Assembly (NCBI GenBank): GCA_039621445.1
Contig: CP154954.1
Coordinates: forward strand, 16,386,140-16,450,139
Length of the DNA: 64,000 bases
Direction of reading: 5' to 3'
From: Euglena gracilis
Lineage: Eukaryota
The translations under genes were made by a program, and so were the position numbers. The notes beneath the pieces are model-generated. The model was not told the DNA's origin. It saw only the letters and a program-made list of their open reading frames with translations, and ran no database searches. Shown here one piece after another: positions 12,926-58,473 of this stretch. Position 1 is the stretch's first letter. Each line of letters starts with the position of its first letter.

Positions 12926-15900
12926 TATGGCGCAACAGCCCATCGTGGCCCCTGAGGACGTCCAATGCAGATGAAGGAGTCATTCAGCAGACGCCCGAGT
13001 CCCGGCGGCATTCACCTGACTGAACCCGACTGAAATCAGTGGTCACGAGGAGCGAGCGGACGGGTGTCGGGTGGAACTGCGGCAGCAGAGGCGGGGAAAG
13101 TCTGCGTGCTGTGGTACGACAACTTTTGGAAGCACCAGATGCGCTCCACCCTTTCGAACCTGTCCGCACCCAGGACTGCACTGGCCATCCCGGAGTACCC
13201 AAAGTGCCCTTCCATGGAGAGGGTGCTGTGCTACGTCCCGCTGGTGGCCAGGCGCCCAGTGCAGAAGCACCAGGTGCGCTCCACCCTTTCGAACCTGTCC
13301 GCACCCAGGACTGCACCGCCTAGCCATCGTGGCCATCGTGCAGACGACCCTGGTGGCCATCCCGGAGTACCCAAAGTGCCCTTCCGTGGAGAGGGTGCTG
13401 TGCTACGTCCCGCTGGTGGCCAGGCGCCCAGTGCAATCAGTCCTGGCGGACTTCGTGCAGCATCACCAACATCGCTGTGTCCCCGCTGGATGGCAAAGCG
13501 TGGACGTTCCCAATCAGTACACTCAGGACTTTGTTTCTTCTTTCTCATGCCATATGCCGTGAAAAACAATAATTTTCAGTGGATTGCTAGCAGAATTGCA
13601 GATGTGCAAGCTTTGTGGTATCAATTGGTTTGGGCAATTGTCTTTACAAGTCTTCACAGGCACCGTTTGCGCAATTGTGATTCTAATGTTTCAACAAATG
13701 TCTGGGTTAGGAGTCAGTTCGAGTAAGGGATGGCACGACAACAAAATCTGAATCCTGCCTTTTTGGGGGGTTGCCTCCGCGTCTCCACAGAGGCTCCGCG
13801 AAGGCTCCAAACGACCAGCCTCCACAGCGGCTCCTCAGAGGCTCTGTGGAGGCTCAGATGACCAATTTGCCAGAGCATGGCAAGACACATGGAAATGAAC
13901 GGGAAGATCTCAAAAAAATGGAACGCAAAAAGACATTTGAGCCTCACCTTGCACAGAGTAGTGATGCCATTTTTGTTCTGGGGGGGCATCCCCTCCCCCA
14001 GACGAGGCCGGTGTCAAAAAATGACGCCAAAAAAGGAGCCAACAAAAATGAATTGTATGCCAAAAACTTGGCATTCAATGAGGTCCAAGAGTGGGGTGAC
14101 AGGGGGGGGTGGCAGCGAAGGGTGTGTGTGGGGTGGCAGCAGGGGGGGGGGGGCGAGGTGTGGGGGGTGTGGAGGGGGGGGGTACTGTGGGTGCACCACT
14201 TCACGCCATCTCTCACTTTGAGCTCGAGCCAAAAAAAAAATAACAACAAACCCGCCCCCAAAAAGGCCGAGGGATGATGCCCCAGGGACCATTACAAGCC
14301 GAAAAAGATTGCACACACACGCACACACGAACATTACTCCCGTTTGATAAATCTTTTCTGTGGAATTTTCGATACTGCGGGCAAAAATCATAAACTTTCG
14401 ATCGAGGGGGAGGTGTGGGAGGTCGATGCTGCTGGTTTCGTTCAGGTTCGGTCACACAAAAGAGCGACCCTGAAAAAGCAGTGGCGGGCTCGGGGCCCAT
14501 TTTCCCTTTGAAACAGCCAACCTTTGCCATCGCTCCCCAACCATTTACCAAGCAAAACGATGCCTTGGGTCGTTAACACTCGGGGAACAGGAAAAAAGGC
14601 CGAGAAATGATGCCCCAGGGCCCATTATAAGCCAACAAAAAAATTGCACACGCACTCACACCGCACATTACTCCTATTTGACAAACCTTTTCTGTGGAAT
14701 TTCCCCCTGAGTGCCCCCCCCCCTGGGTCCAACCTTCAAGAAATCCCTGATTTAACAAGGAATCTGATTTTCCAAACCGCCCTTTCAGCTGTCCAGATTC
14801 GACTTGCTTGCTGCTTTATGAATCAGGGCAAGGATGATTATGCCATGGATTAGATAGGATTAAATGTGGCATCGACCGACAATCCTGAACGTAACCCAAA
14901 CCCTAGCTCAAACCAAACCCCAACCTGAGGACCCTTAAACCAGGTCCCCACCTGCTGGTGAGGTCCTGGCGTGGTCAATTGCCCTTTTTCTGCAGTGGAA
15001 AGCAGTACTCTTCCATTCACTTGCAAATTTTCTTCCGTTTTGCACAATTTTTTTTGCATTTTTGGAAGAGTTTTGCATTTGCATGGTTTTTTGTGTGTTT
15101 TTCCCTTTAATTCTTTTTTCCCAACATTCTCATTTTTTATTTTTCAGGATTTTTCTTTGCATGTTTTAGCACACTTTTGCACGCTTTTTTCCCTGAAGAT
15201 GTCCAAAAGACAGATACAGACACTCAGACACACATATTGACAAACAAACAAACATCCAGGCAGAGATGGGAAAATCCGTGATATTTTTGCGGAGAGAAAC
15301 TGGTCAAAACAGCATTCATTCATTCATTTCATAAAAACTGCAAAAAAAATCAGCTAATTGAGGTTTTGCAACTACAAAAAATCTTCAGAGTCCCCTCACA
15401 GAGGTGGGGAGCTTCATAGATCAGGGCTATAATGGGGAGTTGGCGCCCTCACCATAACTAAAATGTATTGCACGTGTTGAGAGCTGCCCTAGATTCACCC
15501 AATATAAAGATTGTGGGTGCGACATGGCTCAGCGGAAGGATAACACTCCATGGCAGCAACCATCCTGTAGCAGCGGTTGCCGACTTCTGCTGGCAATCAG
15601 GGATGGGACAATCCAAAAGCAAGAGCAGACCCTGAAACAAACGAGGAGAGTGGGGCAACCTGTGAATGTCCAATGCTCTCAGGCAATTGGGCTCCTTAGG
15701 TAAGTCCCAATTTGTTTCTTGTATATCCTTGTATAAAATCCTTGTATACAGATGAAAAATCTTAACATATTCAATAAATCTACAGTGTGCCCGGTAAATT
15801 ATCAATTTTCGGGAAACTGTCACCTGTCAAATCAGTGAGTACAGAGGGAGGTGAAAGGTCCCTATAAAGATAGGTCAAGGGTGCAGTGCTTGTCCGGGTA

Positions 15901-21255: not shown

Positions 21256-21290
<35 letters not shown>

Positions 21291-28048: not shown

Positions 28049-28119
<71 letters not shown>

Positions 28120-28120
28120 A

Positions 28121-28153
<33 letters not shown>

Positions 28154-28154
28154 C

Positions 28155-28193
<39 letters not shown>

Positions 28194-28230
28194 GTCTGTC
28201 TGTCTATCTATCTATATATATATATATATC
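28049..28230. repeat. (TATC)n microsatellite
   Basis: Directly visible. Confidence 0.98.
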
Positions 28231-30017
28231 GTCTTGGCAACCATTGGGCAGCAACGTGCTTTTCTTCTCCACCGGTTTGACGTGATGTTGTAGTGAGGTC
28301 CCCCCCCTTCACTGCAATGTTATAGAACAGGTTCTCCATCTACGACATTGGGGATGCTGACATGGGATTCTGACGGAGTGTGGCACTCCGTGAAACCCAT
28401 TCACCCTCTGCACGGTGCGTCGGTGGATTCAATAAAACCATGCCAAATAAAATTAATGGTTTGAGACATGTGCTATTTTAACCGACGCATGTGGTGTGGC
28501 TTCTGCATGCAAGGGCGTTCCTTTAGGACCCATGGGGGGTCCAGCTCAGAGGCTGGAGAGCTTGGGCTGGTTGGAAAAAGGCTGTTGGCTTACCCCCTTG
28601 GGGGTGCCAGGGCTGGAGCTAAGCCCGACCCGGGGTCGAAACGGGTATCACAAAATTGAAAGCGCAAAAATGTCCAAAAAAAAAACTGCCAATTATGCAA
28701 AAAAAATATCGATTTTTCGACCCCAAATTTGCCCTGACGATCCCTTTTGCGACCCATTTCCCCCATTTTTGACCCATTTTGGCCCATTTTTGGACCCCCA
28801 AAAGCGAAAATCTGTTACTGACCAGCCACTTTTCAGGCGGCTGGAAAAAAATAAAACTCGCTCTTGTCAAAGATTTTGTAATCTAACAACAGAAAAAGTG
28901 CACAAGGTATGCAGCAGGGCGTTGCTTAAGAAAATTTGACCAGAATTTGGTTAAAATTGGTTGCTTTCTGCAAAGAAGCAAACGGCCAGAGTACAGTGTT
29001 GGGCGGCATTCCTTCAAAACCCCTCAAAGTTGCAGTAAATACATTTTTTACCATGCAATAATTCAATTTTCATCAAGATGGTGGAAAATAACAAAAATTC
29101 AAAAAATAGAAGGAAAATGAATAAATGAATAAATCCGATGATTCAAAAACACCATAAAACGGCCACAGCTTCAAATTTGAGATACGTGAGACGAGTCCCT
29201 TTTTGTCCCGAGCTTTGCTAACAAAAGGGCCAAAGCCATAACTCGTCCAGGGCACTTGATATGTTACAAATTTCGGGTCCCACACACAAGCAGCTCAAAA
29301 ACCTTAAGAAATGGCTCAATCTGCAACGACAAGTCTGCATGAAATCCCGGTAAATTAACATGGACATTCACAGGTCCTTGACCCTGTGAATGCCCGAATA
29401 ACCTACGGGGGGGGGGCAAAGAAAAAAAAGATCGTTTTGGTAACCTGGCACACCGCCAGGTTTTTTGGTGGGGGTTTGGAGGGGGTTGGGGGGGGGGGTG
29501 CCCTCTCCATTGTACTGGCCATTGTTCAATGCTGTCCGAGTGGCACAGCGAATCACCACAGATCAGTGAAGGCCAGCTGCAAAAGGTGGAAATTTTCAGA
29601 CCGTCGCAAAAGGTTTGGACTCATCATTGTGATTTTCTGTCGCAGTCACCCCTTGATGAGAAAAAATAATAATAATAAATGCGTGATGGATTTGGTGCCC
29701 CAGGATGTGGAGTTCCCTGAGGGTAAAACAAGGTTCATCCCCAATGGCTCCCAGGCGAACAGACCCGGTTCAAATATGTCACTTTTTGATATTAGATGAG
29801 TGGGGAAGAACCGCCTTGGCTTTGGAACAGGCAGCCACAATAACAAAAAAAGCAGGGCAGGGAAGCGGCAAATGCATATAACGAACCTCTTCCAGCACAT
29901 CATTCTCTATATTAAAATGCAACCAAGGAGGGACAACACACGAAGATGGAATTGTTTGCCTCCTCCTTTGTTTGTTGAATACCAGAGGGGGGTGGCGAAT
30001 CCTACCCAGTTTGCACC

Positions 30018-32428: not shown

Positions 32429-35079
32429 TTTGCACCCCTTGTTGGCTGAATACCTCGGGCCTGGTGGGAGTTAGGGGCCAACCAGAAGTAGTTCAGAAAG
32501 CCGGGATCCAATCGCTCGCGATTGGGAAAAAATTTTGGGAACGGGGCAGGGGTCATGGTGATAATCTGAAGTTTTCATTCCCATTGAAGAAAGGCCATCG
32601 CTCATCCACCCAAAAAGTCAAAAAAATGCGGTTTTTTATTTCATAATTTTTCATTTTCAACCCTGTTCAACCCCAGACCGGCCATTGGCAGGTCCTTAGT
32701 CCTAAGACGGTCCATAATGGGGCAGTCCTTAAAAAAAAATACACTGCCCCATTGACCGACCTGCCCTTGGGGGAAAAGCACATGGACCCAATGGACCAAT
32801 GCATCACCTGTCCCGAGACGTGTACATCAGGAGGGAGGGGGCAGCCATCAGGCACCAGGTTTTCGGCGCATGATGCATGATGCATCGCCAGGTTCCAAGT
32901 GGTGGGCAAATGGCAGATCACGTAAAATAAAAGGAGAAATATGAAAAGTCCAGATATTATGTGAAAAGGGGAACTCTGGGTGTCTTTTTGAGCTTGAAGA
33001 ATTTCCCCAATAATACACCCCCCCGACTCAAGTACCCACCCTGGGCCCAAGTTTTGGATACCTGTATAATAAAACACCACCAGGTATACCATTTGGGGGA
33101 GGGGTTTCATTGGGCGAGGGTCGCACCAGTAGGGCCTTGGTAGGTTTGTTGTACCAAGCATAATTTTAAAATATGCTTTTTTTCAGAGGGAATTTGATGA
33201 GTTTCCGCTTTGCTTGATTTCTATCAAGGAGTGTGGCTGGGGGTACATTATTTGGGCAGCTGAAATCGCAGGCCAGGGGCGGGGTATATTATTTGGGGGG
33301 AAGTTTGTGAAGGTGTTTTGAAGGCTGCCGATCGATCACCTTCCCTCCATGTCTGTTGGATTTTTGGACGCACCTGCCATCAAGGGTCTCCATCCACCAT
33401 GCCACCACAGTGTCCCCCAAGAGCTTGGGTGAGATGAAAGTGGCTGAACTGCGGCGGGTTTGGGTGTTTTAAGGGTGGGACACAGAAATAAACAAAAGGT
33501 AAGTCCCGCCAGGCTCCGGCCACCTCCACGTACACAGACAAAAGGTTCAGAGGCGAAAAACAGCCAGAAGAAGGGAACAGAAGAAGGGATAAAAGGCACC
33601 AAACAAAAAGCCACAGTGCACACAGGGGCACTCGGGCCGAAAAGGCCAGAAACTTCAAAAAAAAATTCCCGTGGCTTCCGCGCCGGGTGGCCACTTTCGA
33701 GCATTCGTGGCCAACCTCCTGGGGGGGGGGGCGTCTGGAGCCAAAAACCACTCCTAAAAAACCAGCCAATCACCCCCCTGGGGGTCAGACAAACCGTAAG
33801 CAATGGTATAGTCAGGACCCCCCTCCCCCGAACAAACAATTTTTTTTCTGCTCAAAGCGCCAGAAAAATTGGGGGGCCAAAAAAAATTGCATTTCACATT
33901 ATTTTTTTTAACAATGACAATTTTGGGTTCTGGGCTGGGGCTTAGGCAGCCGAATTCGCACTTAAGGGTTTTCCCTTTAGGATGGGCGCATTTGCGCAAA
34001 TGTAACCATTTTTTTGTAACCCCTGGGACCCTGTACCCTGCCTGCCAAAAAGAAATTTTTGTGATCGCGGACGGAACTCGTTAGGGCTGGGCAATTCGAA
34101 CCCCTTCAAATACAAACTTGACTTCGCGACCGAACGGGCGCGCGAACATTTGTACCTCTCCCTCTCTGCAGATGGTTGTCTGCACACTGTCCGTGGGACA
34201 CCCGCCGACACCCTCTTCCACCCCACACCACCCCGCGGCACCCAACTGGCCAGATCTGACGGCGTACGGTTTTTGACTTTTGGGTGTCCAAATGTGACCT
34301 GTGGATACTGAACGTTTGCCGGGCGATGAAATCAGACACCCTTGATGAATTTCGAAATTATTGTGATGGTGTGTTGGGTGCCATGACTTATGAATTACGA
34401 TGTAATTGGGTGTGTCTGGAGAGGGGTGTGACACCCCTGTTTTGGACAAGGGCGAAGAAATGCCTGGTGATTGGAACTTTCTAATTGGTGTACGGAATAA
34501 ATTTTGTTTGTGGCGCACTGCACACTTGCGCAAATGCGCGCATCAAACGATTATTCCTACTGTGATTGACTGTGCTGCTGAGAGGGTGGTTGACGCCCCA
34601 GATTGTGTTAGAAATGAAAAGTGGTTGTTTAACGACCCAGAGGGCGTTGTGCTGCCAGTCTATTGACCTGCACGTTGTCATTCACTCGTTGTGTCAGTGG
34701 GGGTGTGATTTGTATGGCTGGTGGAGCTGGGAAGCTACGCTGCTCACCATTTGAGAGTGTGTGTGTGTTACGTGCTGGGTGGCTAAGGCTCTATGGTGGT
34801 GTATGGCCGGTGTCCCCTGTCTGGAGTTGACGTACATGGGGGATGGCCAGGCAGGGTACAGCGGTGTATTAATGTGTGCTTTTTTGTTTGTTGACTTGCG
34901 CATTTTGCGCGCACAAACAGTTCCAAATAAAAGAAATGACACACAGGATTGTGGGACGTGTAGCGTGTAATGTGTCTGTATGAGTGATGTGGACAGGGTG
35001 GCGACAACGGGGGTGTGAAGTTAACAGATTTGAGGTGGTGGTGAAAAGGCGGCGTGCCGGCAGACCTGGGGAGGACTGA

Positions 35080-36096
35080 ATGGAGTCCTTGCAGGCCAGC
35101 AGCACCCACTCCCGCCGCCGTGGCTACGAGGGCTACAGCGAGGAGGCCGCCTTGGCCGCGGAGGCCAGGAAGGTGCTGGGCCAGCTGGTGAAGGCCCACT
35201 TCGCCACCAGCTACGAGGAGTTTGTGGCGGCGGTGGTGCAGCGCGGCCACCCGCTGCAGACCCTGGTGGTGCAGGTGGCCCACACCCGGGTGCCGCTGCG
35301 GACGGAGGGGGGCGCGGCGCTGCTGGAGGAGCTGGCCCGGGAGCCGCGGCGGCCGCAGATTGAGCTGCTGCTCAAGGACGCCTGGGCGGTGTACCGGGCG
35401 CTGCGGCAGCACGCCTGCCCGCGGTCGGCGCAGCGGGTGGTGGCGGAGGAGCACGAGGCGCTGCTGGCCAGGCACCGGGCGGCCAGCCAGCTGCTGCGGC
35501 CAGTGGGATCCTGCCGGAGGAGCCGATGTGGAACCGGCAGTGGCGGCGGCAGCGGGCCTGTTAGCGGCTGGAGGACCTGTGGCAGCAGTCGGAGGGGCGG
35601 AGCTGCGTCCTGTGGTTCGACAACTTCTGGAAGAGGGCCATAACGTCGAACCCCCGGATGGTGATCCGCACCCACGACTGCTGCGTGATGGCCATGATGC
35701 GGACGGCGGTGGACGCCATCCCGGAGTACCTGGGGTACCCGTCGCTGGAGCAGCTACTGGGCCGCATCCACCGGGTGTCCGCACGGCTGGTGCGGAGCGA
35801 CCTGCCGGCGTTCTTGGAGCTGGTCTCGGAGATCAGCGCACGCCCGCTGGAGGCGCACCGCGAATCTGCCGTTGTCCGTGGCTGCCAAATCCTCGTCCGA
35901 GGGGTCCCTGCCTGAGCGACCGACTCGACGGTCGCGATTCGAATCACCAGCGGGCGACGAGTCACCTCCGCGGGCGGGCGGGCGGGTACCGGCGGACCCC
36001 GCAGGGCGTGGGGCGGCCACCAGCAGTCGGGACACGGTGCCGCCGAGGGCGGCTCGTGTGTACGTCCCGGCGGACCCCTTCGAGGGGTCCGACTGA
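35080..36096 (+). pseudogene. E1 transposase, frameshifted and internally deleted (keeps only the WxDNF first-Asp region and the C-terminal tail)
   Basis: GC-rich coding-like sequence. CVLWFDNFWKR and YPSLEQLLGRIHRV align with E2 VVLWLDNF and HPELSDLIGNLEVV. Homology stops at ~35860 and jumps to a low-complexity tail ending in TGA at 36096. Confidence 0.7.
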
Positions 36097-36640
36097 GCGG
36101 ATTTGCTGATGAGGCGACGGTTTAGTAACTTTTGATACAAGCCACACCACACTTTATTTTATGGATCATTCGATGCGCCATAACCAGGTGCATGTTCGCC
36201 AAAAGAAAAAAGTTGACAACTCCCCTCTAGACACCTTCTGGATTTCTAAAAAAGCAGGCCTACGGATGTCCAACAGTAAACCGCCAGTGTGTTAACTGTT
36301 TCGCGACCCGAATGCGTGACGTGTCACCCCCGGTTTGTGTTCGGCAGTTTTTGACACAGATACGCCATGAAAGATTACGAAAACGTAGCATATCCATACC
36401 CCCCGTTGTTACGGACCAGAATAATCCATTTTGTGCGTCCCGTCAGAACGTTTCACACTTTTTCCATTTTTTGCCTGAAAATGCCTAAGTCGGATGATTT
36501 TTTGTCATAATTTGCGCGGATTGCTTGCCGTAGGTTAGAAGGCATTTCAATGTGCTGAATTCAGTTGTTGCACGTGCAGTTCAGTCACTGGTCACATTCC
36601 CCCCCTTTTTGAAACGGCGCCTTGCCTCAGGTCACACACC

Positions 36641-41165: not shown

Positions 41166-44100
41166 GACTGGCTGTGGGCCTGTCTCCTAATTTTTTTACG
41201 TTCTCTTCCCCTCTGCATTCTGTTTCCACCATTTCTTTTTTTTTTATAAAACACTTTTGATGCGCGCATTTGCGCAAATGTTTCTGTCACAAGTGTTTCA
41301 CCCTCTCAGTCCCCTCTCGGCTATGGTATGTCCCCTCTCAGAATTATTTGTTTTAAACAAATAAAAAACCTGTTGATGTTGATGTGCGCAATTGCGCAAG
41401 TGAAACACACACTTTGTTGTTTTGTGGTTTGAATGCCGGCCGGAGACGGTGCCCCACTGCCGTGGTGTCTGTGTACACCGCCCCCGCTGACCACCTCCGG
41501 CCTACGTCATCCCCATGCCCTCTACCCTGCCGGGGGGTGGACTTGTGTTTTTTTGGGGGGGTTGGTGTGACCCCTCTCGTGGCTGCAGCCCCCTCTCGTG
41601 CCGTGCTGTCCCTCTCACCCGTGTCATAAATACACAAAAGAAAAAACCCCTTAGTACCACCCCCCACTCACAACCAGCGCGGGCGGAGTGCGGGGCGGCC
41701 CCTCCTCCTGTTCAGCCAGGCGCCCGGGCGACAAGCGTATCACCGCCCGCCGGGGGTTTGTTTGTCTAGTTTCTTTTTTTTCTGTGTGGTCTGCACATTC
41801 CCATCTCTTTCAACCATCTGGTTCTTCCACCGGCACCCCTCTCACACACTGGCACGCACACCATCGTACGTTTTATTTGCGCAATTGCGCGCATCAACAT
41901 CAATCGTCTGTTTTGGTGCTTCACAAAAACACCAAAGTCAAAGTCCTGGGTTGCACACAAGCCAATATGTATTGTAAACCAAGCCCCCACTGACAACTGC
42001 GGGTGTCTGACCCCACCGCCCTGCCTGCCGCACATCACCCCTGCACACCCTCTGCACCATGACACCTCTGCACCCTGGACCCCTCCTCCCTCCCTCTACC
42101 CCCTGCACACCGTACCCATCAACCCGCACCCCTTCCAAAGCCCTGTCACCCTTTCCCCTGCTTTCCTTACCAATCAAAAATTACCAAGTCCCAAGGGTCA
42201 AAGTACACACACACACGCACACTCCGAGGCACCGGGAGGGAACACACTGCCGGCGAGACTGCTTCCCCAAAAAAGGCTCCGCACACTCACAGGGGCGGGC
42301 AGGGTCCCGGTCCCCGGGTGTTTTTTTTTACTTTTTTCAGTGTGGGCGGGCAGGTTCCCGGGTGTTTGGCCCCCAAATTTTTTTGGACACCTCTTAAAAT
42401 CACATTTTCGGCCAAAGTCCCAGGGGTCTCTCCGCCAAAACCAAAAAAATTGTTTCGTTTTTGCCCTTGCTTGCCGGCGTGTCTCCTCGCCCCCCAGACC
42501 TTCACCGCCGGAATCAAAAAACTCGGGGATTTGCGCAAGTGCGCAAATAAAAAGTTAAAAGCTTAAGTGCGAATTAGGCCGCCTAAGAGGGGGGGTCCCT
42601 GGGCCCACTTTGCAATGCACAAAACCACTACTTAAAACCCTACCCCATCCAAAAGGGCGATGGGCGAAACCTGCCAACCAGCACAAACAAAACTGCAAAA
42701 GATCAGGACCAACAAAGACAAATGTCAAGAAATATTTATATTACGTTGCATAACAAAAACGCACTCCATTTTAAATTTGGGTTCACCCGCCGTTGCCAGA
42801 ATTTGATTGTGCTGAGCACTTTGTCTTAGGCGGCGTAAACTGCCCATGATAAAATTGACTGGAAGTGGGTCCCGGAATGCCAGAAAAATGCTGCGAAAAA
42901 TAGCCAAAATTTTCGTGTTCCGCATCGTATCAAAAATTTTTCGCACCTATTGGCTGCATAACAGCTGAAGCGGAAAACCGCTTCGATGATTTCCGAAATT
43001 TATTTTTTAGCAGATTCACAGGTAAATGCGAACAAGCAAAAAGGTTGTAGAAAACCTACTACATAGACAAACAACGAAAGATGTCATCTGTCCTTCAAAC
43101 ACACAGATACAGAAAGAGAATATATACATAGCAAATACCTGCGTGCAAGTTAGACAGCAGCATAACAAAGAAATTCAAGTAAGATGCCTGATGAAGCGGA
43201 ATACCGCTTCATCGACACCCACAGTCATGATATGATGTTACGTCCATCTGAACCAGCTGTAACAGAAATTACAATCACATTTATGCTGTGCCGGATAAAA
43301 AGGAGGAGAGACCACGTTGCACCCGTGTGATTCACTCTGCCTGACACCGACGTTGGCCACCGTCGGGGTCGATTGTTCCTGTGAGCTGCCGGGGCCGCAA
43401 GCGGCGGAAGCAGGCACCCGGCAGCCCCGTGGCTCCCCGCCTTGCACTGCCGGAGACAGAATGGTTTTAGGCTTAGACTGAACGTAAAACTGACATATGA
43501 CGTTTGTGGTGCACATGGCGGTTTGGTGGTTGTGTAATGCGCGGAACAAATGCGTAGGTCCATGAAAAGCAAATACTCTTGACAGAGGAAGCGGGTTTCC
43601 GCTTCCTTTACACGTAATTGACACAATTCACAAAAAGGGGAGAGGCTGGACCGGGTCCAATTCACTTCCCCGTACCCCCGAACGGTGCCCAGCCGTGAGG
43701 GGTTCGGTTACAGCTTTTGCTGGACCAGGCTGGCGATCGTACAGTCCAGGCTCCCCGTTCATGGTTGCACATAAACGTTACCTAGTGTACGATGCACCTT
43801 GTGAAATGCACTTTATGGTTTGGTCAAACGTTAAACGGTTAACAGCATCGCGCATCGCATTGCAATGCTTACTAAGCCAGGCAAAATGCAACGTCAGATT
43901 CGACAGGAAGCGGTTTTCCGCTTCTTTTAATAAAGCGTCCAATATCTTTAATGTCTTTCGCGAGGTACATAACTGTTTACCGGTTGAGTGTACCATGAAC
44001 AGCACAACAGTCGTCATGTTAGCAACCAAATTGAAGAACACGGTTACAGTGGTGGACCGAAGCCAAGATTGGCATACTGCAACTCGTCGTGCTGGTACCT

Positions 44101-45247
44101 CATTGTTCGCCACTTGCGCTGAGTTGATCGAGTCCATGAGAAGTCCGCTGCAGACATGACCTTGGCGGAGTTTTTATTAATAACAACACGGAAAACGGTT
44201 TTATAAGTCCAACGCAATGAAAATGAAGCGGAAAACCGCTTCACCTACGACCGAAATCGCGATCATGTCTGTTCATACCAAGTGTGTGACCGCAAAGTAC
44301 TACATAGTTCAAACTACACGCATTCAGGTGGTATAACTGAACGTGCTCTGCGGGCTGCCGCTGGCAATGGCCAGCAAAGGCCGTATGTGGCGGGGACTGC
44401 CCACCCCCACCACGTACTGTCTGTGGTTCCCTACCAGTGACAGCCTCCTTTTTTGCTTTTACCGAGGGCAGCGGGAATCCGCTTCAAACGAAGCCACACA
44501 TGTGGGTAGCGACTGTGATCACCCAGGCAGTCGGGTTCATCAGTGCACATTGGGCGCAGCTTGTTGGACGATGTGTCACTCTTCTAAGTCACATTGGTAT
44601 GGACGGCTGAATAAAGACGTGAGGTCTGTGTATATACCGAGATCAAGATACTACATACGTCTGCGAGGTTGCGATCAGTTGGTTAGTCCGCAGGGTAGGG
44701 TAGTGACTGTGATCACGGCAGGCAGTCAAGCAAATGTGGGTAGTGACTGTGATCACTCAGGCAGTTGTACCAAAAAAAAGCAGTCAGTAATTTTAAAATG
44801 AGACAGAGTAGGAAGCGTTTTTCCGCTTCCTGAAAAAAACTGCTCAAAATATACGTAAATCCCACCCTACGTTTCTGAATCGCGAGGTTTCTAACCGACG
44901 TAACATGGCAGTTGTACCACCAACCACATCAATTCACCATAAGTTCCCAGGTACTCGTGTTTTGGGAAGGATTTTACCTGACATCGCGCTCTGGATGCGC
45001 CCAATTTGAGAGACCAACGTCCTGTTGCACCCCCATTTCAAAATCTAAATACACCTGCCAAACAGCACCAAGAAATCAGCAAACCCGTCTTATGAAGCGT
45101 AAAACCGCTTCATATGTGAAACTATAAGCAATTTGTCAACGCGTTCTTAGGTTAACGGGTCATAAACAAGAGAATACCAAGAGGAAGCGGTTATCCGCTT
45201 CCTTTTGACGCACGATATTCATATCTGGTCATTGGAACAGAGATCAC

Positions 45248-47902
45248 ATGCCAGCCGTTCCGTCGCCAGAGGAGTTGGTCCTGAACATTCGGGGCCTTCG
45301 CGCCTATTTGCAACGAGGTCGGCCTCGTTCGGGATGGGACCTATTTCATGATGCCTTCGTGGCTCGTGATGTAGGTGCCCAAGCAATTGTGGCACTGTGC
45401 TGCATGGTGCGGCTGAATCGGCGTTCACGTCGGACAGTAGAGGTGGTGCGGGAGGCCTACATGCGGTATTCCACTCACCATCCTCGGTGGCTGGGACAGC
45501 TCGCTACTGGGGCGTATGCTGTGTGGCGTACGCTGCATCGACAGGCCCAACCCCTCGCAGACCCCAATACAGTGGCCGAGAACACTTCCAGCACGCGGGC
45601 ACTTCAGCAGCTTCCGAGGGCAATGCGGAGAACGCTACGGCACACCGGCGTGGTGGGTCGTACGGAGGTGCAGGTTGCAGCCCGGGCAGCGGTGGCGGCG
45701 CGGGACATCCTGGCCTCCCTCCGGAACCACCAGGTTGTCCTCTGGCTGGACAACTTCTGCTGGCTACGAACCTGAGCCAGAACCTCACTGCTTTTGGAAC
45801 AGTGCAGGGCATACTGATGTGTGCATGATTCAATGAATCACTGGTTGGTTCCTGAAGCAGTGAATGGCAATGAAGCGGAAAACCGCTTCATTAGTACTCA
45901 ATATGTTTGCATGGCTGTTTGTGGTTCAACTGTAACAAATGAATGATTCAGAAGGATGGACCCGTACTTTGCACTGATGCCGCTTCCTGCAGCTGGAGAA
46001 CCTGTTGCACCGACAGGGGACGAGGACGCGTTCCTTGACCTTCCCGGTGTCTCCAGGACATCCAGAGCTGAGCGACCTGATTGGCAACCTGGAGGTGGTG
46101 GCGTCCTCCTGTTGTACCGCATCGTTGCTGCTGCACCAAGCCGTGGGTCGGATACGACGGATGCAGCTGACGGAGACGTCGATCAGAGTACCACTGGATG
46201 TGGCGCGGACCGACATGCGGTCCCTGCAGTGGCGGCCGCTGTCACTGACGGAGCAGGTGGTGTCAGCCAACCTGGACTTGCTGCTGGTGCTGTAGACGGC
46301 CAGGTCACTGCAACACCTCACTCGTCGCCAGACGCCGCTGCTGGTGGATGAGAACATCCACTACAGGTGCCTGAGGCTGCTGTACTCTGCGTCGGCATCG
46401 CGGTACTACGTGTCCCGCTATCTGGCCGAGGTCCCCCTGCTGTACGGCATCTGGCACGCGTACAAGCACACGGTGACCATCGTGTACCGGGCGTTCTTCC
46501 CGGTGCTGGCACAGCTGGAGGTGTCCCCCGGTGACCACCACCTGACGTGCAGCCTGCGGAGCCACCGGAAGGTGCTGTACATGGAGAAGCTGTTTGCCAG
46601 CCTTCTGTTGTCCCGCGAGTCGGTCATGTCCCACTCTGAGTCGCGTATAGCACCAGGGAAGCGATTTTCCGCTTGCTTCATGCTCATTGATGCTATTTCA
46701 TGATGTCCGTGTGGCATGCTATCTGCGACTCAGTAGTCAACTATCAACCAGAATGGGAGATTGGAGTCGCTCAGGGACTACACGAGCTGAACAACAGCAG
46801 CAACTCCGGTCCTACCCGTACCAGCTGCTACAAGGGCTGTGGAACATCCTGGTCTTCTATGCCCCGGCCTTGCTGCACTTGGGACACGAGGTCCGACAGT
46901 GTACCTGGAGAGGTAGACCTGAGGACGAGGTGAAGGGTACTACCGCTCGGCTGGTGCTGCAGAAGTGCCTCCTGCTGCTGATGCACCTGGAGAGCCTGAT
47001 GAGTCCCGGAAGGCCGCCGTCAGAGTACCAGCGGACCATCTCCCTGGCCCTGGCTGGGGTGGCAGGACTGGATGTCCCGGCTGCCGGGCTGCGTGTTCGT
47101 GGAGGAGGCTGGTGAGGCCATGCTGTCGAGGCTGTCGTCTGCCTGCAAACGGAACCCCCACGTGACCAGCTTCGAGGGTACACTGCAGCTGTTCCTCAAC
47201 CTCAGCGCCCCCTCCGGCGAGTCCCACCACAGCCGTGGCAGCCTCCGGAAGCAGCTCGTGCAGGAGATGGCACGTCGTGTTCGTGGCCTGGTTGGCAGCC
47301 CTGGTGACCGTCCATTTCCGAAGCGGGTGGACAGCACCACCGTGCAGTGGCTGGTGGACCCAGAGACCTACCCCACCTGGATGGCACCGGAACCTCTGCC
47401 AGCGCGGATGACCACTGAGCAGCTGCTGCCCGTCCTGCGACACTCCCTGCAGACGCTGGTCCGAGGACAGCGCCTCGCTGCAGACGTGGAGGAGTGGCTC
47501 AGGACCAACGTGGGCACTGTTGATCCAGATCTTCTGCAAGAAAGAGAAGAGGCGATGTACCCTTTCCTCGCGCGGAGAAGAACCAGGGCTGCCACAGCGG
47601 AAGTTCCTCTTCAGCGTCCCGATGAAGCGGAAAACCGCTTGCACGACGCGGATGAAGCGGATACCCGCTTCGATGTCAACTCAGCTGAGATGGAGGTGGC
47701 AGAGGCATCGATCGTGGTGGGTGACCAGGAGGAAGGCAGCAGTCTGTACGAGCCACCGGAGTCCCTCTACGAGCCGCCCGGTGACTTATCGGACGGCTAC
47801 GTGTCTGTGGGGGCCTCCGACGGATTGGACTGGCTGGGCTCACTGCAAGGCAGTGATATATCCGATGCTTCGTCGGACGTATCCGTAGCAGTGGTGTGTT
47901 AA
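45248..47902 (+). pseudogene. E2 spliced DDE-like transposase (DUF6589/Academ-like by motif pattern)
   Basis: Ordered motifs VVLWLDNF (D1), PLLVDENIH (D2), LLYGIWHAYKH (conserved H) and CVFVEEAGE (E), then an acidic tail. Introns at ~45830-45992 and ~46640-46740. In-frame TAG at 46293 and frameshifts at ~45770 and ~47055. Confidence 0.7.
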
Positions 47903-48270
47903 TGCCTCCTGATTGCTGTTTGTGGGAGATATCTGTTGCATATACGTTATTTGGGACACGTTGGGTTCACACGCTGGCTATTACTAACTAATAGATAGGC
48001 AAATATGAGCATACCGGACCATCACCACTACAGACAGCAAGAAAATGGATACATTTTTTAAACATGGTGCTGTTTGCTCCAGGTTGGCAGTGTAAAATGG
48101 AGAGTGTTTTGCAAACAACAAGCAAAATCAAAAAAAAATCACCAATTTGGCTGTGTTTTATAAGTTCTTTTTGAAAATAAATGATGCAAATCCATTCATT
48201 TCAGCCTTATTTTCCACAGATTGCAGGAATATATACATATTTTTTGCTTTCCCTTCACAGACCAGTACAC

Positions 48271-51200
48271 ATGCCTCCGAAGAAGCTGGCGAAGGCAGAC
48301 ACCACGGGACAGTCGATCCCGAAGCTGCTGGAAGACGAGGAGATGTGGCTGCAGAGGGAACAGGGTTAGATTTGTGGTTCGTTTGGTGAATGAACAGATA
48401 TGGATTGATAAGTGTGGCAAGATTACCCTCAGTGGAAAGACTTCTGTTGACATTCTTCATTGGAGCTAAGGTTCAGAAGCATTGACAGATAAAAAATCAC
48501 TTTGGTCAACCAATGAAGCGGAAACACGCTTCATTGCCGTTATTTTTCCCACAAAAGAAAGATAACTTAACTAACCCTGTAGTCGGGCAGCTGGTTCTGG
48601 ACGTTGACCTGAGCCGGGGGCAGGTCCGGCGGCCCCGTCAGGAGCACGTGAACGACCTCATCACCGAGCTGAAGAACAATCCGCCGCAGGAGCTGGTGCT
48701 GACGGTGTGGCCGGAGAGAGGTGTCCACCAGTACTCTCCATATTGTGTTGGTCGTTCCTGTGGATCAGAACCCCACGCTTCAAGTTGGTGGGTTGGCACT
48801 TTGGACATAGGACATAGGACACATGTGTGTTTCTCTGTTTCATCATATGGAAATGATCTTTCATGGGTTGTGTGGGGCTTTCTGAATTTGTTCCCCTCTT
48901 CGCAGCTACGGGGAAGTGGGTCATCCTGAGTGGTCAACATCGTTTCCTGGCCGCGTCGGCCATCGCCGACGCCGCCATCGCCGATGCCCGGCGAGCTCCA
49001 GCCTTCACGGAGAGGTTCCGGTGCAAGGTGGTGAAGGAGAACACCAGCATCGTCGAGCGCCAGCAGCTGGCCGGCAGGTTGCAGGCCATGGACGGCAACG
49101 TCATGGACATGACCCTGGCGGACCGCCTGCACTGGCTGCTGAAGGAGGACACCCACAACCGGGAGATTGCCGAGGTGGAAGGGGTGGCGTACAACCCCAC
49201 AAAGACGGAGCTGTTGAAGAACGTGTACAACAAGACGGGATGCCGGGAGACCGTGGACGGTGCGCTGGTATGTTCTGTCGCCTATGGACGATTCTGCAGC
49301 CCAGAATAATTATGCGATATTTAATGAACTGATAGCATATGGCATAGTCAGTTCGTTGTTGGAGGTTCTAATGTGATCACAAAAGGAAGCGTTTTCCCGC
49401 TTCATTAGCCTTCTATTTCAATTCTTGCCCTTCTCAGGGTACGTGGGTCAAAGCCATGATCCCGGTCACGGAGTGGGTGCTGCAGAGTGGGACCGAGGCT
49501 GTGGAGGTGGTGAAGAGGATGGAGGCCCGAGGTGGGGACCGTGTGTCCCCACACACGTTCAAGTGCCTGGAGGCCATCTACCACCCGGACGACTACGCGG
49601 AGCTGGCCCAGGTGATGTTGGACGAGAAGTCCAAGCCCACAACCCAACGGCTGGTCCAGGCTCCACATTTTGCATTCTACGTCTGGCGGATGGTTGTAAA
49701 TCGAAAATGAGGAGGGATTTTTCATACACAATGCAGATAGGAAGCGTGTTTCCGCTTCGTACATAAACTTTTAATTTTTAATGTATAATTGTGTTCACAG
49801 TATTCACCCATTCATCCAAAATACAAAATGGAGTCTGCTTCCAAGCACGAGACGGCGAAGCTGGTGCGCCGGAGGACCTGGACGTGGCTGCTGCAGCACC
49901 CGGAGCTGGATGCCGATGTTCTTCACCCGACCAGAAGTGTGTGCTTTTGTATAATTGTCTGCATGAATCATATTCGTGCAAGTCTGAGAGCTGCTGCCTT
50001 TGATAACTGGTTCTTTACAATGATAAACTTCAGTCTGTATCATGAAGTGTTTTTCCACTTCACTTTAATTTGTGTTCTTTTTGCAGAGGACCTGGTGCAG
50101 GTGGCCGCGCTGGAGACCGCCTTGCAGCCGGAGCACGTCAAGGTGCCGATGACCGGAGTGAAGTGGAGGTGGTCGCCCGAAGCCCCCTGTGCGGGAACCA
50201 ACTTCTGATTTGGAAAAACAATTCTCGTTTCATAGCCTGGAGTGAATGCACCCCTCCCAGTGAATGCATTCACACCCCCTCTGATGCGATGGTAATTGTC
50301 CCCCGGCATCGGCCGCCCATCGAGGTGGTACGTCGCGCACCGCTGTGGGCCGACCCCTTGTACGAGGGACTCAGGCAGCGGCTGCTGGGCCCCGTGATGG
50401 AGCCCGTCGTCAAGATCGGGGGTGTCTTCGGCACCTGGACCTGCACGGGATGAGCCTGCCTGGCCGTGGTCCGTCAACGCCCGGCAAACCAAAGAAACTG
50501 GAGGAGGAGGTGTCCAGCACCCAGGAGATCTCCACGCCAGGCCGGGCCACGGCCAAGCGGGCTGCCCAGCCTGAGGCGCCGAAGACCGGCCTCATCCACG
50601 TGGTGCCCATGCAGTCCACGGACAACGCCTGGCCGAAGGACCTCCGTCTGCTGGACCTGGCAGCCGTGGTGGTGGAGGTTGAGCCCCAGCAGTTCGCCGA
50701 CGAGGACAGCGTGCATACCGAGGTGTTGAGGCTCATGCTGACGGGGGTGCCCATGATCGCCGTCGGGAGGGACATCGACCTGCGAGATCTCCAAGCGCGG
50801 CTGACGAAGTTGCTGGGCAGTGAGATGACCGTCTTCCGCAAGGACATCGTCCTCTTCATCCCGCAGCCGGGGCCCGACCCGGAGTGGATCTGGGCGCGAA
50901 GGACCCTGTCCGTGTTCACCACGAACAAGAAGACCATGAAGGTGCACCATCAATTTTATTTTATGATGAAGCGGAAAAGCGCTTCCTGATAATGAGAGCA
51001 CTTCTTTTCTTTTCATGTATATGTCATAGTGAGTGCATACATGTACATCGTACAAAACAGAAATTCCCTGTTACTTCCCGTCGTAGGACCCCGGACAGAT
51101 CACCTTGCAGGGGATGCACCAGGTCCCAGATTGCACTTAGCATGCTAGCAAGCTAAGAATGTTGTCTTCAGTTTTCATACTTCAATCGTGAAACTTATGT

Positions 51201-52383
51201 CCCGGTTGCTGAGAGCAGTGTCCACCAACCCCGTTAGATTTTGGCGATGTCTGTTTTGAAGTGCTATCCGGTGCACCCGACGTTGCCCATCTTGTTCCTG
51301 TGGAGGTGGTCTGGTGGTTCCTGCGGCGGCTGGAGGTGGCCACCGCCGAGTGGGTGATGGTGCTGAGTTCCCGACCGGTGCTGTCCGCCCAGCTGGCCGT
51401 GCGGGCGGGCAGCGCCATCAACCTGCTGTGGGGCGTGCCGGCCCCCCTCCGACGACGCAGAGGCCCAGCAGCGCTGCCTGGAGGACATCGGCCGCGAAGT
51501 GAGGGTGGCCGACGGGCTACCGCCGGTGATCTGGGTGCAGGGTGGCCCAGGCTTCTGTCCCATACTTTCACCGAACTTCAATTTCACATGGTGTGACGTT
51601 TAACGAATGCAAATGGAAATCACCTGGTTGAATCTGTGTCTTTTTTCTAGATCTAACAATTGAAGCGTAAATCCGCTTCAAAGTACTTTGCTAAAATGTT
51701 TTATGGTTTTGTATCTGCATTCCCATTCCCTTCTGACTCCGGACAAGGCATTTTCATTGGGTTCCCCTGTGGCCAAGGACGTCCACCTGAGGATCGTCCG
51801 CCACGTAGCCCTGAACGTGTCCGGGTACATCCCGGAGGGGACGGAGACGGCCCCCGCACCACCGACGGAGGAGGAGCCCCCGTCCAAGGGCGGCCGGGAC
51901 CCGAAGGACTTCAAGTTCAAGGAGACCAAGGAGTCCCAGGACAAGCCCAAGGAGAAGGAGACCAAGGACAAGCCGGACAAGAAGACCAAGGACACGCCCA
52001 AGAAGGGCGTCCGCGGGAAGCAGTCCGCCTCCTCGCAGCAGCCGGCTCGGCACTCCTACGAGTCGTCCCCGGAACCGCCGGAGCGCCCGACACACAGGGA
52101 GCGGCCTAATGGAGGATTGTCTGTGATATCTCTTTCCTTATGTCATCTCTCCAGTTGGCAGTAATTTAACAGTTCTGTTCATGAAGCGTTTTTCCGCTTC
52201 CTTATAACTGAATCAGAGTATTTTTTGTAAGATTGGTATTGTGTTTCACGTTTTACTGTAATGCGATGCACCAAATCAAAACCGTTATCTGAGTTCCACA
52301 CCTCCCGTTTGCGCCGCTCCCTGTTGCCGAGGAAGCGGTCCGCCCTGGAGAACATCCAGGAGATGCTGGTGGACGACGAGTGA
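48271..52383 (+). pseudogene. E2 multi-exon ParB/Srx-like domain protein with a degenerate methyltransferase-like region
   Basis: Approximate exons: 48271-48364, 48583-48720, 48906-49268, 49438-49659, 49846-49938, 50087-50941, ~51308-51540, ~51748-52110, ~52332-52383. GQVRRPRQEHVNDLITELKNNPPQELVLTVW..KWVILSGQHRFLAA contains the ParB GxxRxxA motif. Collinear with the E1 protein (WRWSP..RPP..APLW vs WTWSP..RPP..APFW). Apparent frameshifts near 50420 and 51450. Confidence 0.8.
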
Positions 52384-55300
52384 GCGGGCGGCTGCGGCAG
52401 CCGCGGTGGCAGCGGGCGGCTGGTGCCGCCAGCGAGGGAGGGACAAGCGAGACCCAGACCTGTACCGGACCCAGACCGGACCAGACCCATACCCGCACCC
52501 AGACCCAGTCCCCAACCATGCGCACGCCTTCGCCACACCACACCCACCCATTTTGCCGTGTCTTTCCTTTGTGTTTGTCTTTGGCATGGCTGCGGAACTG
52601 GGGGCTGTGGGGTTTGTTGAAGCTGTGACTTTTGTTCTGAGAATCAAAGTTACAAATCCACAACTTGCTCAGTTAATGGTGCTTCGGGACACAATGCATC
52701 TTCTCGGTACTGTTTGATGCGTGATTCACGTTTGTTGCGTAGTTCAAGTTTGCCATTTGTCATTACAATCTGCATTCAGTTGGTTCAGTGATATTGACAA
52801 TGGCAGTTTCAGACCAGTGCACTACAGTTTGGATCAGACTAAATTTCTCTGCTTTGATTTGAGGAAGCGGAAACCCGCTTCATCGTTTCCTGCTTGTTTT
52901 TGCAGGTTTTCCCTCCTGCCCGCTTATGATGGCCCGGTACCTCAAGCGCAGACTTTGATTACAGGTCTGTATTGTTCTGTTTGTTACATTTGTATTCCGT
53001 TTGTTGTGGCTGTAATGTTTTCTGATGAATGTATTAGTTAAACTTATGCCAATGATTACTGCTGAGTTCGTGTGGTTCATCACACCCCTCCGGTTATGCT
53101 GAACGAATGTATGTCGGTATTATTATTCACTGTTTGAGGTGAATCTACTTCCATCTGACTTATCACATAATTTTTCAGTTTCTCATTAAAGCGGTTTTCC
53201 GCTTCCTTTTCGTTTTAGGAAAATTTTCTTCACTTTGCTGTAGTAATCCCTTTGGTATGATTCTTCTGCTGTTGATTTTGGTGACCTGTGTATGATTTTG
53301 AAGCGGAATGTCCTCTTTACCGCTTCCTATATTTTGTGTTTATTATTTTTCCCCCTTTGCAGGGGGTTTCGCCTTCTTCTATCTCTGGAGGCAGTCAACA
53401 TGCTCCTGGACTTTTTGTTTGATTTTGAGGCATTTTCGAGATATTTTGTGATTTTTGGACCAAAAACAGCCCAACATTGGTCGAAAAATGGTCATATCTC
53501 GAACCAGGTGGGGCGTAACGGGAAGATAGGGAGTTCTCAGGGTTTCATTTGATACTTTAAACATTTTCTTTCACTTTGCTTTATTTTCAGAATATTTTGA
53601 ACATTGTGTTTTTTTGCCCATTTTGGCCAAAAACGGGCCAAAAAGGCCAAAAAAAACATGTCAAAAAACGGGGGCGTAACTTTGGCCAGCGGTGGGGTTA
53701 CTGGGAAAGTCAGGTACCACTAGATAGGGCGTTGCTCATGGCTTGAGTTCTCCCATGGAGTCCTTTTGACAACTTGATTACCCTGGGGAGTTATTTCTGG
53801 ATCATTGGGATTACTTTAAGGGCTCCTGGGACCATGTGGGAGGCTTCCCTAAAAGACAACTCCCTGGGGAGGGAGGCAGTTCATACCGGGAAACGGGGGT
53901 TCTAATTATGTAGCCCAAGAGGCGGGGTGTCGGGGGGGGGGGTTCCCCTGGAAAGCTTCGATGTTACTCATAAAGGGACAAGAGCTCAGCGACCCTAACC
54001 CTATCTGAACCCCAAGATTGACACACTGGAAAGCCAAACCCCCAAACATGTTCAAGAAAGTGTTTGTCTCTCTGTTATAAGGGGGGCAGTTCTCCAAGGA
54101 TAACCACCTTGATAGCTCAGACAACAGAACCTGGTCGGTTGCAATGTAATACCCAGTGAAAACCTGGTGGGAATCCCTTGAAGAGCACAAAAAGCCCAAG
54201 AGGCCAAAAAATGATGCCAAGAAAAAAATGGGGGGAAATATTTATTTGTGAACAGCTGCAAACCAAGTGACCAGAAAGAGATCAAATGCCCGGAGAATAA
54301 TGAGGAACAGCGACAAGACACTTGGGACCTTGCACCAAGGAAGCAGAAACTCGGCGGTCAAGGCTGCGCTGATGGAACTGGGATGAGGTCGACTTAGACC
54401 CGCGGCACTTTCTTCAAATATTTTTTTAGCACTGTGGACCGGAGCATTTTAATGTTGTCGAAAAAAAATGCAATTCTCGAAGCCTCCTGGTTTTTTTCAA
54501 AAAAGCGCATTTGAATTTCATTCTAGGTACCAAAAAACTTAAATGCAACATCGACAAACTCGCCTAAATCGCATTTGCCAACCCTCCAAATGTCGAACGG
54601 CAAGCCTTTCCAAAAAGGGTCAGCCACAAAACAGGGCAGGCAGTTGGGGCTGTGCCTGCAGGACAATTTAACTGGCTGCTCGGCAGGCAGCAAGCAGCAA
54701 GCAGGAACAAATGGCACGCCATCACTGACTGTTCACCAACAACAAAGACCACAGTCAAAGAAGGAGGTCACTGAATGGTGGAACCATGACTGCCCAGCAA
54801 CGATGGAAGGAGTCGTAAGCTTTCACAACGGGCTAGATTTGCTTCCAACAATGCGAAACCATAATGGACGGGGTTTAGAGTCCCAACCACAAACATGTAT
54901 TGAAAAATAAACTACCAAAACAGAAATTGTTTATTGCATTGTACAGTGGAATGTTCCTGAAATTTTAAACATGAAAACTTACTCCCCCCTCCCTGGGCGC
55001 TTGGGTCCGCTCCTTCTTACGTGCAAACTTGGCCCCCTAAAGTTGGTCTTCAGCCTTAACTTGCAATTTGGCCCCCCATTAATGCTTTGGTCCTCTTTTG
55101 CACATGGCTCACTGAAATCCTTAACATGCAAACTTGGCTCCTGAGGTTGGCCCCCCGGCCTTGCCTTCAGTCGTGGCCCGGGCCAAGCGCCTGGGGGGGG
55201 GGGGGACACTCTTAGTTAGTTACGCTCTTGAGAATTCACCGACACCTCACAAAAGTCAGTATTAATCTAATCCACTTCTTTCAGACACCTGGCGACCCAC

Positions 55301-57246: not shown

Positions 57247-58473
57247 TTCTGAAGCGGTGTTGCTGGGGGAACTCCTTGGGGGGAACTCCTTGCCGACCCG
57301 AGTGTGCGTCCTTGTGGGGAAAATGTGTTGTAAGTTGGTGTGGGTGCGTGTGTTGTCAGTCTGTGTTGCGGTTTCGCCCCAGGCTGGCAGTTGGGGCATT
57401 GTCAGGGGTGACGACTCTGCCAACCCTTGTCCCCGACCGCTCTTGTCTGTGTGGCATTAATTTTTGAAAATTTATTTTTGATGCGCTCAATTGCGCCCAC
57501 AAAATGCATTCTGCGTGTTCAGGGAGGGAGGGTGTGACCCCCCCATCCTCAAAAACGTTCGTAGTCTCAAACTTACGAAGCCACAAACATTCAGTACCTT
57601 CCCATCTACTTTTAGAACACAAAGAATTCCCAAAAGAAATGTGGGGTATGTGCAGGTGTACAAACGCCTGCACTAATGGGCCACTATTTTCACAGGGGAC
57701 TGAAGGAACTCTTTGTCAGACGCAGTACACGTACAAGGCCTACTGCACATGTCACTTAGGATGAATATGGAACAGTTTATACTTTTGATGCGCGCAATTG
57801 CGCAAATAAAAAGTATAAATTGTTTCATAAGGTACAACCGTATTGACAGCATCACCACACACGTGCACATGTTTTTTTTTACTTTTGATGCGCGCAAATG
57901 CGCAAATGCTAAGTAACACTTCCGTGTTCCTGAGATATGAATGTTAGCATGACAACGGTGATACTGAATAGCCCCCCAAATTGACTGAGCAACCGCGAGT
58001 CTGGCTGCTGCCTCCCCAGGAGCCCTCTCCTGGCGTGGACGGCGGCGACCCAGCACGCTGTCCCAGTGGACCTGGCAGAGATCCAACTCCGCCTGCGACC
58101 GGCGACTGCTGCCAGCCTGCGCGTCGTAGCACAGCTGGTCCAGCTCCGTCGCAGCGTCGGCGGAGGGTACCTGGTGCTTCAGGAGCGTCCGCAGCGCGTA
58201 CTGTAGGACATCCTTCAGCGCCGTCTCGCCCTTCGGTCCAGCGTCGGGCGCCAGCAGGGATGGCGAACGCACCCAGCCGTTTGGCCACCGCAGGACCACC
58301 GACTGGTCCTCGGACTCCTCCCCCTCGTCCGCGTCGAGGTCCTCGGGCTGCCGTCTCTCCGTGCGCAGCGCAGGACGGAAAAATGGCTCCACTACCTGTG
58401 GGGCACCCTCCGGGAAAGCACCCTTTGGGGAGGGCTAGTCAGGCCCTTTCGGTGTGGAGAGTGGCAAAAAATA
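57247..58473. mobile_element. (TC)n-flanked non-autonomous element containing a captured E1-family segment
   Basis: 57247-57455 matches 61241-61449 and 58365-58470 matches 61535-61640. The middle is different. Confidence 0.65.
57456..58364 (-). pseudogene. C-terminal fragment of an E1-family transposase plus downstream spacer
   Basis: LKDVLQYALRTLLKHQVPSADAATEL resembles E2 LLPVLRHSLQTLVRGQRLAADVEEWL. E1-type palindromes at 57482, 57789 and 57889. Confidence 0.6.

Follow-up and report, generated by a model that had tools for sequence, protein, structure and literature searches.

The DNA analyzed here (the window) is a stretch of 64,000 nucleotides of the Euglena gracilis genome (contig CP154954.1, positions 16,386,140 to 16,450,139), and our main subject is the gene at 45248-47902 of this window. 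We consider that this gene is probably a pseudogene that once encoded the transposase of a cut-and-paste DNA transposon family present in high copy number in Euglena (euglenids). A previous sequence-only reading had described it as a divergent, intron-containing transposase marked by four ordered motifs. Scanning the sequence, we recovered WLDNF, VDEN, GIWH and VEEAGE in the claimed order and all on the + strand (Table 1). The predicted fold of an intact homologue and its structural matches agree with the proposed assignment to the DDE-type transposases with an RNase H-like core. The further proposal of a new lineage is a fair reading, provided that the novelty concerns the lineage and not the type of enzyme, which is known; the present copy is a pseudogene.

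To define the family, the central exon was read through its stop codon as X and compared by phmmer with 1.84 billion representative proteins. This search retrieved 485 proteins (representative clusters) at E ≤ 1e-3, 252 at E ≤ 1e-10 and 45 at E ≤ 1e-30. The top match, P0001, was 97% identical; since it is an E. gracilis transcript product (EukProt), at least one near-identical copy is transcribed. The remaining members came nearly all from environmental assemblies, with neither a name nor a precomputed Pfam domain. Full-length members measure 700-840 aa and some have no introns, such as P0004, an uninterrupted protein of 770 aa with 58% identity in the core, and an open reading frame (ORF) of 720 aa on the metagenome contig L002. 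Intron-free members were carried by metagenome contigs L001-L005, on which we found neither similarity to the gene downstream of the window copy nor the GAAGCGG hairpins described below, these contigs being too short to show neighbours. No Pfam family was matched by the window exon ORFs (E ≤ 1), by 20 full-length homologues (E ≤ 0.1) or by any of 60 aligned members (E ≤ 10). By these profile searches, the family falls outside every current Pfam family. Likewise, a PDB sequence-profile search gave nothing below E 0.6, a search of the ESM Atlas with a 118-aa exon piece gave no usable match, and Rfam matched nowhere in the 64 kb.

We then relied on structure prediction, and the intact homologue P0004 was modelled with AlphaFold2 from a 60-sequence alignment (mean pLDDT 85.1, pTM 0.80). 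The model shows, in order, strands at 159-168, 182-191 and 271-276, a helix at 283-300, a strand at 306-308, a helix at 310-321, a strand at 339-341, a helix at 343-357, an all-helical part up to about residue 515 and a helix at 517-532. This predicted order is RNase H-like, except that a large insertion precedes the final catalytic helix, and the helical insertion domain of the model is of the type typical of P, hAT and RAG1 enzymes. In a structure search not using Foldseek, ranks 1-38 among the matches listed were all DDE transposases or retroviral-type integrases: the P element transposase first (6p5a_A, Z 9.7, rmsd 5.8, 290 residues, model 142-550), then Tn5 (Z 8.4, 209 residues), Hermes (Z 7.8, 282 residues), ISCth4 (Z 7.6, 225 residues), integrases (Z about 6), RAG1 (Z 5.7, 291 residues) and Transib (Z 5.2, 253 residues). 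Re-scoring of the top 1000 Foldseek chains gave Z scores of 9.7 and 9.6 for the P element, up to 8.6 for Hermes, 7.2 for Transib and 6.9 for RAG1. Each of these re-scored matches spans 270-300 residues, and therefore includes the insertion domain. Had the RNase H-like fold been missing, the sequence-only reading would have fallen; the fold is present in the P0004 model.

The same reading also depended on acidic residues conserved among homologues. In the 60-sequence alignment (about 23-50% identity to P0004), the putative first catalytic residue, D164, was conserved in 56/56 sequences, together with its neighbours W162 (55/55) and N165 (56/56), and the second, D309, in 60/60. The candidate glutamates were nearly as constant (E516 in 36/41, E517 in 38/42 and E520 in 40/42). 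Conservation extended to W344 and H345 (60/60 each), E387 (59/60), and R255, P257, D259 and R262 (58/58 each) with L258 (57/58). In the model, D164 is on strand beta1, D309 directly follows beta4 and E516-E520 open the helix 517-532, which are the positions expected for a DDE triad. By a rough count from the ends of the aligned ranges, D164 lies near what we take to be the first catalytic Asp of Tn5 and Hermes, and E520 near what is presumably the catalytic Glu of Hermes, the P element and RAG1. The window copy still carries D164, D309, W344, H345 and E520.

However, this copy cannot make the enzyme, because its coding sequence is interrupted by a stop codon, has lost an internal segment together with the reading frame, and contains one inserted base. 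The stop and frameshifts had been noticed before; we locate them at TAG 46293-46295, just after 45768 and at 47052/47053. At the TAG, both P0001 and P0002 (96-97% identical proteins) encode Gln. Directly after 45768, the window copy lacks a WGTDP-coding stretch that is present in P0004, and contigs of runs X15, X16 and X17 continue past this position with the WGTDP-coding letters. At 47052, the frame of the window copy is shifted by an extra base that many other copies do not have. Contigs without this base were found in 4/4 runs compared, with a summed depth, not to be read as copy numbers, of 24548.7/65551.5 in X1, 40.9/90.5 in X15, 63.7/63.7 in X16 and 18.1/18.1 in X17. The three defects are thus specific to the window copy, and near-identical copies free of them exist elsewhere in the genome. 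Overall, the window copy is a pseudogene that has retained every conserved motif.

Table 1. Features of the transposase gene, its relatives and the surrounding units (window coordinates; residue numbers are those of P0004)
Feature	Position	Strand	Basis or remark
Decayed near-full-length transposase gene	45248..47902	+	ATG at 45248, TAA 47900-47902; profile positions 4-645/666
Coding block 1: helical N-terminal region and strand beta1	45248..45768	+	aligns with P0004 residues 13-170
WLDNF motif, first catalytic Asp candidate	45743..45757	+	D164, strand beta1
Exon 1 remnant, shifted frame, TNLSQNLTAFGT	45769..45801	+	homologue alignment
Intron 1, inferred	45802..45992	+	GT..AG, 191 nt, phase 0; holds hairpin 45872-45889; sequence against homologue alignment
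Coding block 2: catalytic core	45993..46644	+	aligns with P0004 residues about 192-409
RVPLD motif	46185..46199	+	R255, P257, L258, D259; insertion between beta2 and beta3
In-frame TAG	46293..46295	+	Gln in P0001 and P0002
VDEN motif, second catalytic Asp candidate	46344..46355	+	D309, directly after strand beta4
GIWH motif	46446..46457	+	W344, H345; start of helix after strand beta5
Intron 2, inferred	46645..46774	+	GT..AG, 130 nt, phase 1; holds hairpin 46658-46675; sequence against homologue alignment
Coding block 3: helical insertion domain	46775..47052	+	profile and homologue alignment
Coding block 4: catalytic-Glu helix, C-terminal domain, acidic tail	47054..47899	+	profile and homologue alignment
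VEEAGE motif, catalytic Glu candidates	47099..47116	+	E516, E517, E520; helix 517-532
Near-complete family match	45281-47593	+	profile positions 4-645/666
Truncated paralogue, N-terminal third, with frame change, within unit B	35164..35855	+	profile positions 5-227
Small fragment of third paralogue	13091..13300	+	profile positions 142-214
Weak C-terminal family fragment	58015..58305	-	profile positions 573-657, E 8e-5
Unit B left terminal inverted repeat, 26 bp	33941..33966	+	24/26 bases match right repeat
Unit B right terminal inverted repeat	42562..42587	-	pairs with left repeat
Candidate left terminus of unit holding the 45248-47902 gene	42825..42838	+	first 10 bases identical to unit B terminus
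Array of 21 hairpins GAAGCGG-N4-CCGCTTC	42967..53205		around and inside gene, including both inferred introns
Downstream (second) gene regions	48486-51000 and 36613-39250		

The relatives of this gene within the window were searched with a family profile (60 members, 666 positions) run over its six-frame translation. The W.DNF pattern had been reported three times, and exactly three occurrences were found in six frames, at 13112, 35613 and 45743, all on the + strand and each one base away from the coordinate first given. All three fall within family-profile matches and are therefore homologous copies rather than chance occurrences. We rejected their reading as three comparable copies, since by profile coverage two of them are short fragments (Table 1). 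In a tblastn search against the window, the exon ORFs matched themselves only, so the paralogues must be very divergent. A tblastx comparison of the locus with the remaining window sequence gave mainly low-complexity matches and was set aside. Outside the window the family is abundant: in one DNA run, 6400 contigs at least 93% alike mapped to the 8.6 kb compared, which implies a very high copy number. Together with the decayed and truncated copies, this number is indirect evidence that the family has been mobile.

We identified two adjacent units in the window with the same gene order, a family member followed by a second gene. The upstream one, unit B, is an element bounded by inverted repeats, as in cut-and-paste transposons: it measures 8647 bp between its outer ends, and its 26-bp terminal repeat is unique in the window. 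Since its family member is truncated, unit B is considered a deletion derivative. For the unit holding the 45248-47902 gene, the terminus-like sequence at 42825, located 142 bases before the first hairpin of this unit, is likely to be the left end. On the other side, contigs of three runs diverge from the window sequence at 53394.

Each unit is studded with short palindromes of its own. The hairpin GAAGCGG-N4-CCGCTTC was found in 21 copies (up to 2 mismatches), all in the unit of the 45248-47902 gene and none elsewhere in the 64 kb, for 0.22 expected by chance. These copies occupy non-coding parts, including both inferred introns, and twice lie in frame in the C-terminal tail (47624 and 47654). 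The palindrome of unit B is different, TTGCGCA-N2-TGCGCAA, with 16 window matches (up to 2 mismatches) compared to 0.34 expected. Thirteen of the 16 are inside unit B, between 33984 and 42546, and these include copies at the inner edge of each terminal repeat; the remaining three (11097, 57790 and 57890) are close to the 13-kb and 58-kb fragments of the family. From this distribution, the palindrome seems to differ from one element lineage to the next. Many contig joints in the DNA run hop between hairpin copies, and these are taken as assembly-graph effects.

Regarding gene structure, the description as intron-containing is consistent with two intron-like interruptions that are seen when the window copy is compared with an uninterrupted homologue. 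In the alignment of the window with P0004, P0001 and P0002, both interruptions are compatible with conventional, frame-preserving GT-AG introns. P0003, a family member from another assembly (51-54% identical), reads into an intron at the same site as window intron 2, and its C-terminus encodes GKGFVSSCF where the translation of the window hairpin gives GKRFSACF (window 46645-46680). The hairpin at the start of intron 2 thus appears to be conserved across divergent copies. At the other end of the protein, an acidic motif, YEPPESLYEP, is common to window 47740-47790 and to residues about 725-740 of the 58%-identical P0004. It sits in an otherwise poorly conserved, low-confidence C-terminal tail and may be a docking motif.

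Several results weigh against reading the gene as the transposase gene of a cut-and-paste element. No sequence method, neither Pfam nor the PDB profile search, ties the family to any named transposase. Foldseek alone placed Hermes and the P element on top with weak values (best E 6.3e-3, none at E ≤ 1e-3), and, according to the warning given with the structure search, models lacking any clear match often reach a best Z of 7-8. For this reason, the case for the fold rests on the uniform list of matches and on the length of the alignments. The putative triad of D164, D309 and E520 was placed by the secondary structure of the model. Splice joints were absent among the contig matches listed from the runs presumed to be RNA; a contig from these runs reads through intron 1, and no spliced RNA was seen. 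Finally, no match to a right terminus was found within the window for the unit holding the gene, and the flanks of unit B (...CTGGGG and AGGGGGGG...) have runs of G on both sides that make its target-site duplication ambiguous.

Taking these points into account, we propose that the intact protein, of about 770 aa, would begin with a helical N-terminal region, probably the DNA-binding part, followed by an RNase H-like core. In the model, a large domain made only of helices is inserted into this core after beta5 and ahead of the final catalytic helix. The protein would end in a small C-terminal domain and a tail rich in acidic residues. If the family works like the enzymes of the P element, hAT and RAG1/Transib, two metal ions would be held by the Asp of WxDNF on beta1, the Asp of VDEN after beta4 and a Glu of EExxE in the late helix. 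As fold and conservation suggest, these ions would serve to cut the ends of the element and to join them to a new site.

Compared to known systems, the family would represent DDE transposases structurally closest to the P element and hAT enzymes, as judged from the model. The P element structures (6p5a and 6pe2) were the best structural matches, over 286-290 residues of model positions 141-550, and in both proteins the RNase H-like core is interrupted by a large domain ahead of the catalytic-Glu helix. By contrast, sequence identity is only 10%, the Euglena family has no Pfam match, and neither the THAP domain nor the GTP-binding insertion of the P element was detected in it, its own predicted insertion being all-helical. 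Hermes and other hAT structures (4d1q, 8sjd and 6dww) aligned over 271-292 residues with Z 7.8-8.6, and share the all-helical insertion domain and a conserved His motif shortly after the second Asp. In hAT enzymes this motif is CxxH, and its counterpart in the Euglena family is G-[IV]-W-H, so that the residue three before the His is Gly and not Cys or Asp. The Euglena family further differs in having no hAT dimerisation domain or BED finger (Pfam, 60/60 without match) and in its 80-residue insertion with an invariant RxPLD between beta2 and beta3. hAT elements also make 8-bp target duplications; that of unit B is left ambiguous by its G-run flanks. RAG1 and Transib have the same domain order over 277-302 aligned residues (best Z 6.9 and 7.2, respectively), with lower scores than the P element and Hermes and no sequence similarity found.

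The main question of classification is whether the family belongs, as a very divergent member, to the Academ/DUF6589 superfamily instead of forming a separate lineage, and we regard such membership as conceivable but somewhat doubtful. The resemblance to DUF6589 already suggested for this gene was weakly supported by protein-language-model features and not by profile search. Using P0004 residues 130-680 as query in the ESM Atlas, which returns a look-alike score without alignment or E-value, 28/30 matches were in DUF6589 (PF20231) clusters, with a top score of 0.96 and 200/256 shared features. However, none of the 60 members reached PF20231 with HMMER at E ≤ 10, and the DUF6589 clusters listed are fungal and molluscan, whereas the Euglena family comes from Euglena and environmental assemblies. 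DUF6589 is the nearest neighbour in this feature space, and perhaps a remote relative. The equation of DUF6589 with Academ transposases itself is only inferred, from a similar taxonomic spread in rust fungi: DUF6589 is reported as a domain enriched in rust fungi, and Academ, described in the accessible text of a 2017 study as most abundant in Pucciniomycotina, was then without a Pfam model (PMC5751038). Academ elements (AcademX, AcademH) resemble the Euglena family in being large, in moving by cut-and-paste and in carrying several genes, one of them for a DDE transposase. In contrast, they are reported to encode an XPG nuclease or a helicase and to produce target duplications of 3-4 bp or 9-10 bp (PMC10045372). 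The sequence-only reading had seen no helicase or XPG partner, and we also detected none in the two units, among 126 ORFs of at least 90 aa on both strands of the 33.9-53.5 kb region. In fact, 0/126 of these ORFs matched Pfam at E ≤ 0.001, a count from which short-exon genes could escape.

An alternative to a mobile element is a domesticated, transposase-derived host gene family with a cellular role, for example in DNA rearrangement or repair, of which the window copy would be a dead duplicate. The transcription of a near-identical copy, the strong conservation of catalytic-type residues over deep divergence and the failure to find a complete two-terminus element around the full-length copy are in line with this idea. 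However, the 6400 similar contigs in one DNA run, the four copies or fragments in 64 kb of which three are truncated, the truncated copy within an inverted-repeat-bounded unit and the hundreds of divergent clusters form a pattern that fits a mobile element rather than a conserved gene of the host, and we judge domestication to be quite improbable. An origin in viral DNA, from a giant virus or another virus, integrated into the Euglena genome is more improbable still, even if giant endogenous viral elements with many transposase and recombinase genes are reported in E. gracilis (PMC12455990), because 0/7 candidate stretches in 2.9 million viral contigs encode a relative, tblastn against phage records gave no match, a BFVD fold search gave none at E ≤ 0.001 (the best weak row being a Pandoravirus hAT-domain protein, E 0.07), the region is intron-bearing and mostly non-coding compared to the coding density of >90% given in the accessible text of that report, and no viral hallmark was seen among the 126 ORFs, none of which matched Pfam.

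We retain a cut-and-paste transposon family as the preferred explanation, and its units carry a second gene. The second genes of the two units are homologous, at 39-40% identity, in two collinear blocks that pair 48591 with 36898 and, further on, 50310 with 38902. The gene following the transposase had been called ParB-like, a label that we could not sustain: its sole basis was a short pattern of the GQHR type, two exons lying in different frames would have to share the domain, and none of 10 exon ORFs matched Pfam at E ≤ 10, nor at E ≤ 1 or E ≤ 0.001. A phmmer search of this gene against the PDB gave nothing relevant and no ParB structure. We found no homologues of the downstream gene among longer proteins, and one 96%-identical fragment among proteins of near length. 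In one contig of the DNA run X1, position 47937 is linked to 53164 with 27 other letters between them, so that the downstream gene region is skipped. Some copies may lack the second gene; this is a single contig and possibly an assembly effect.

A bolder interpretation joins these elements together: the family would be a new superfamily-level cut-and-paste lineage confined to euglenids, whose elements carry a second conserved gene and dense, lineage-specific arrays of palindromes (GAAGCGG-N4-CCGCTTC or TTGCGCA-N2-TGCGCAA), which extend even into introns and up to the inner side of the terminal inverted repeats. Taken as a whole, this combination is unlikely. If true, protein and palindrome would co-vary as a pair and form a recognition system undescribed for eukaryotic transposons, and the non-conventional, transposon-like introns found in euglenids could derive in part from these elements. 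The lineage-specific arrays offer a testable case of a transposon recognising its own DNA, and together with the unexplained second gene they are the parts most worth following.

We found no description of the family in the literature on the Euglena genome and its transposable elements, on DUF6589 or on Academ; the supplementary data of PMC12455990 may include it, and the accessible text of that paper on endogenous giant viruses mentions abundant transposase and recombinase genes and does not name their families. The E. gracilis genome is reported at 2.37 Gb, with 32.7% repeats of unknown class and 4.6% DNA elements (PMC11252322). The family described here would give a name and a mechanism to part of these unknown-class repeats, and would add a deep-branching Euglenozoa lineage, P/hAT-like in its predicted structure, to the catalogue of DDE transposases. 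Annotation would also be gained for Pfam-less proteins in hundreds of environmental assemblies and, if the link to DUF6589 holds, a role would be suggested for that uncharacterised domain.

Elsewhere in the window (1-10000 and 20000-34000), we observed mostly non-coding DNA made of other repeats, in which long translations resembling ORFs recur, as exemplified by a repeat present at 1197-1676, 3564-4040 and 5080-5553.

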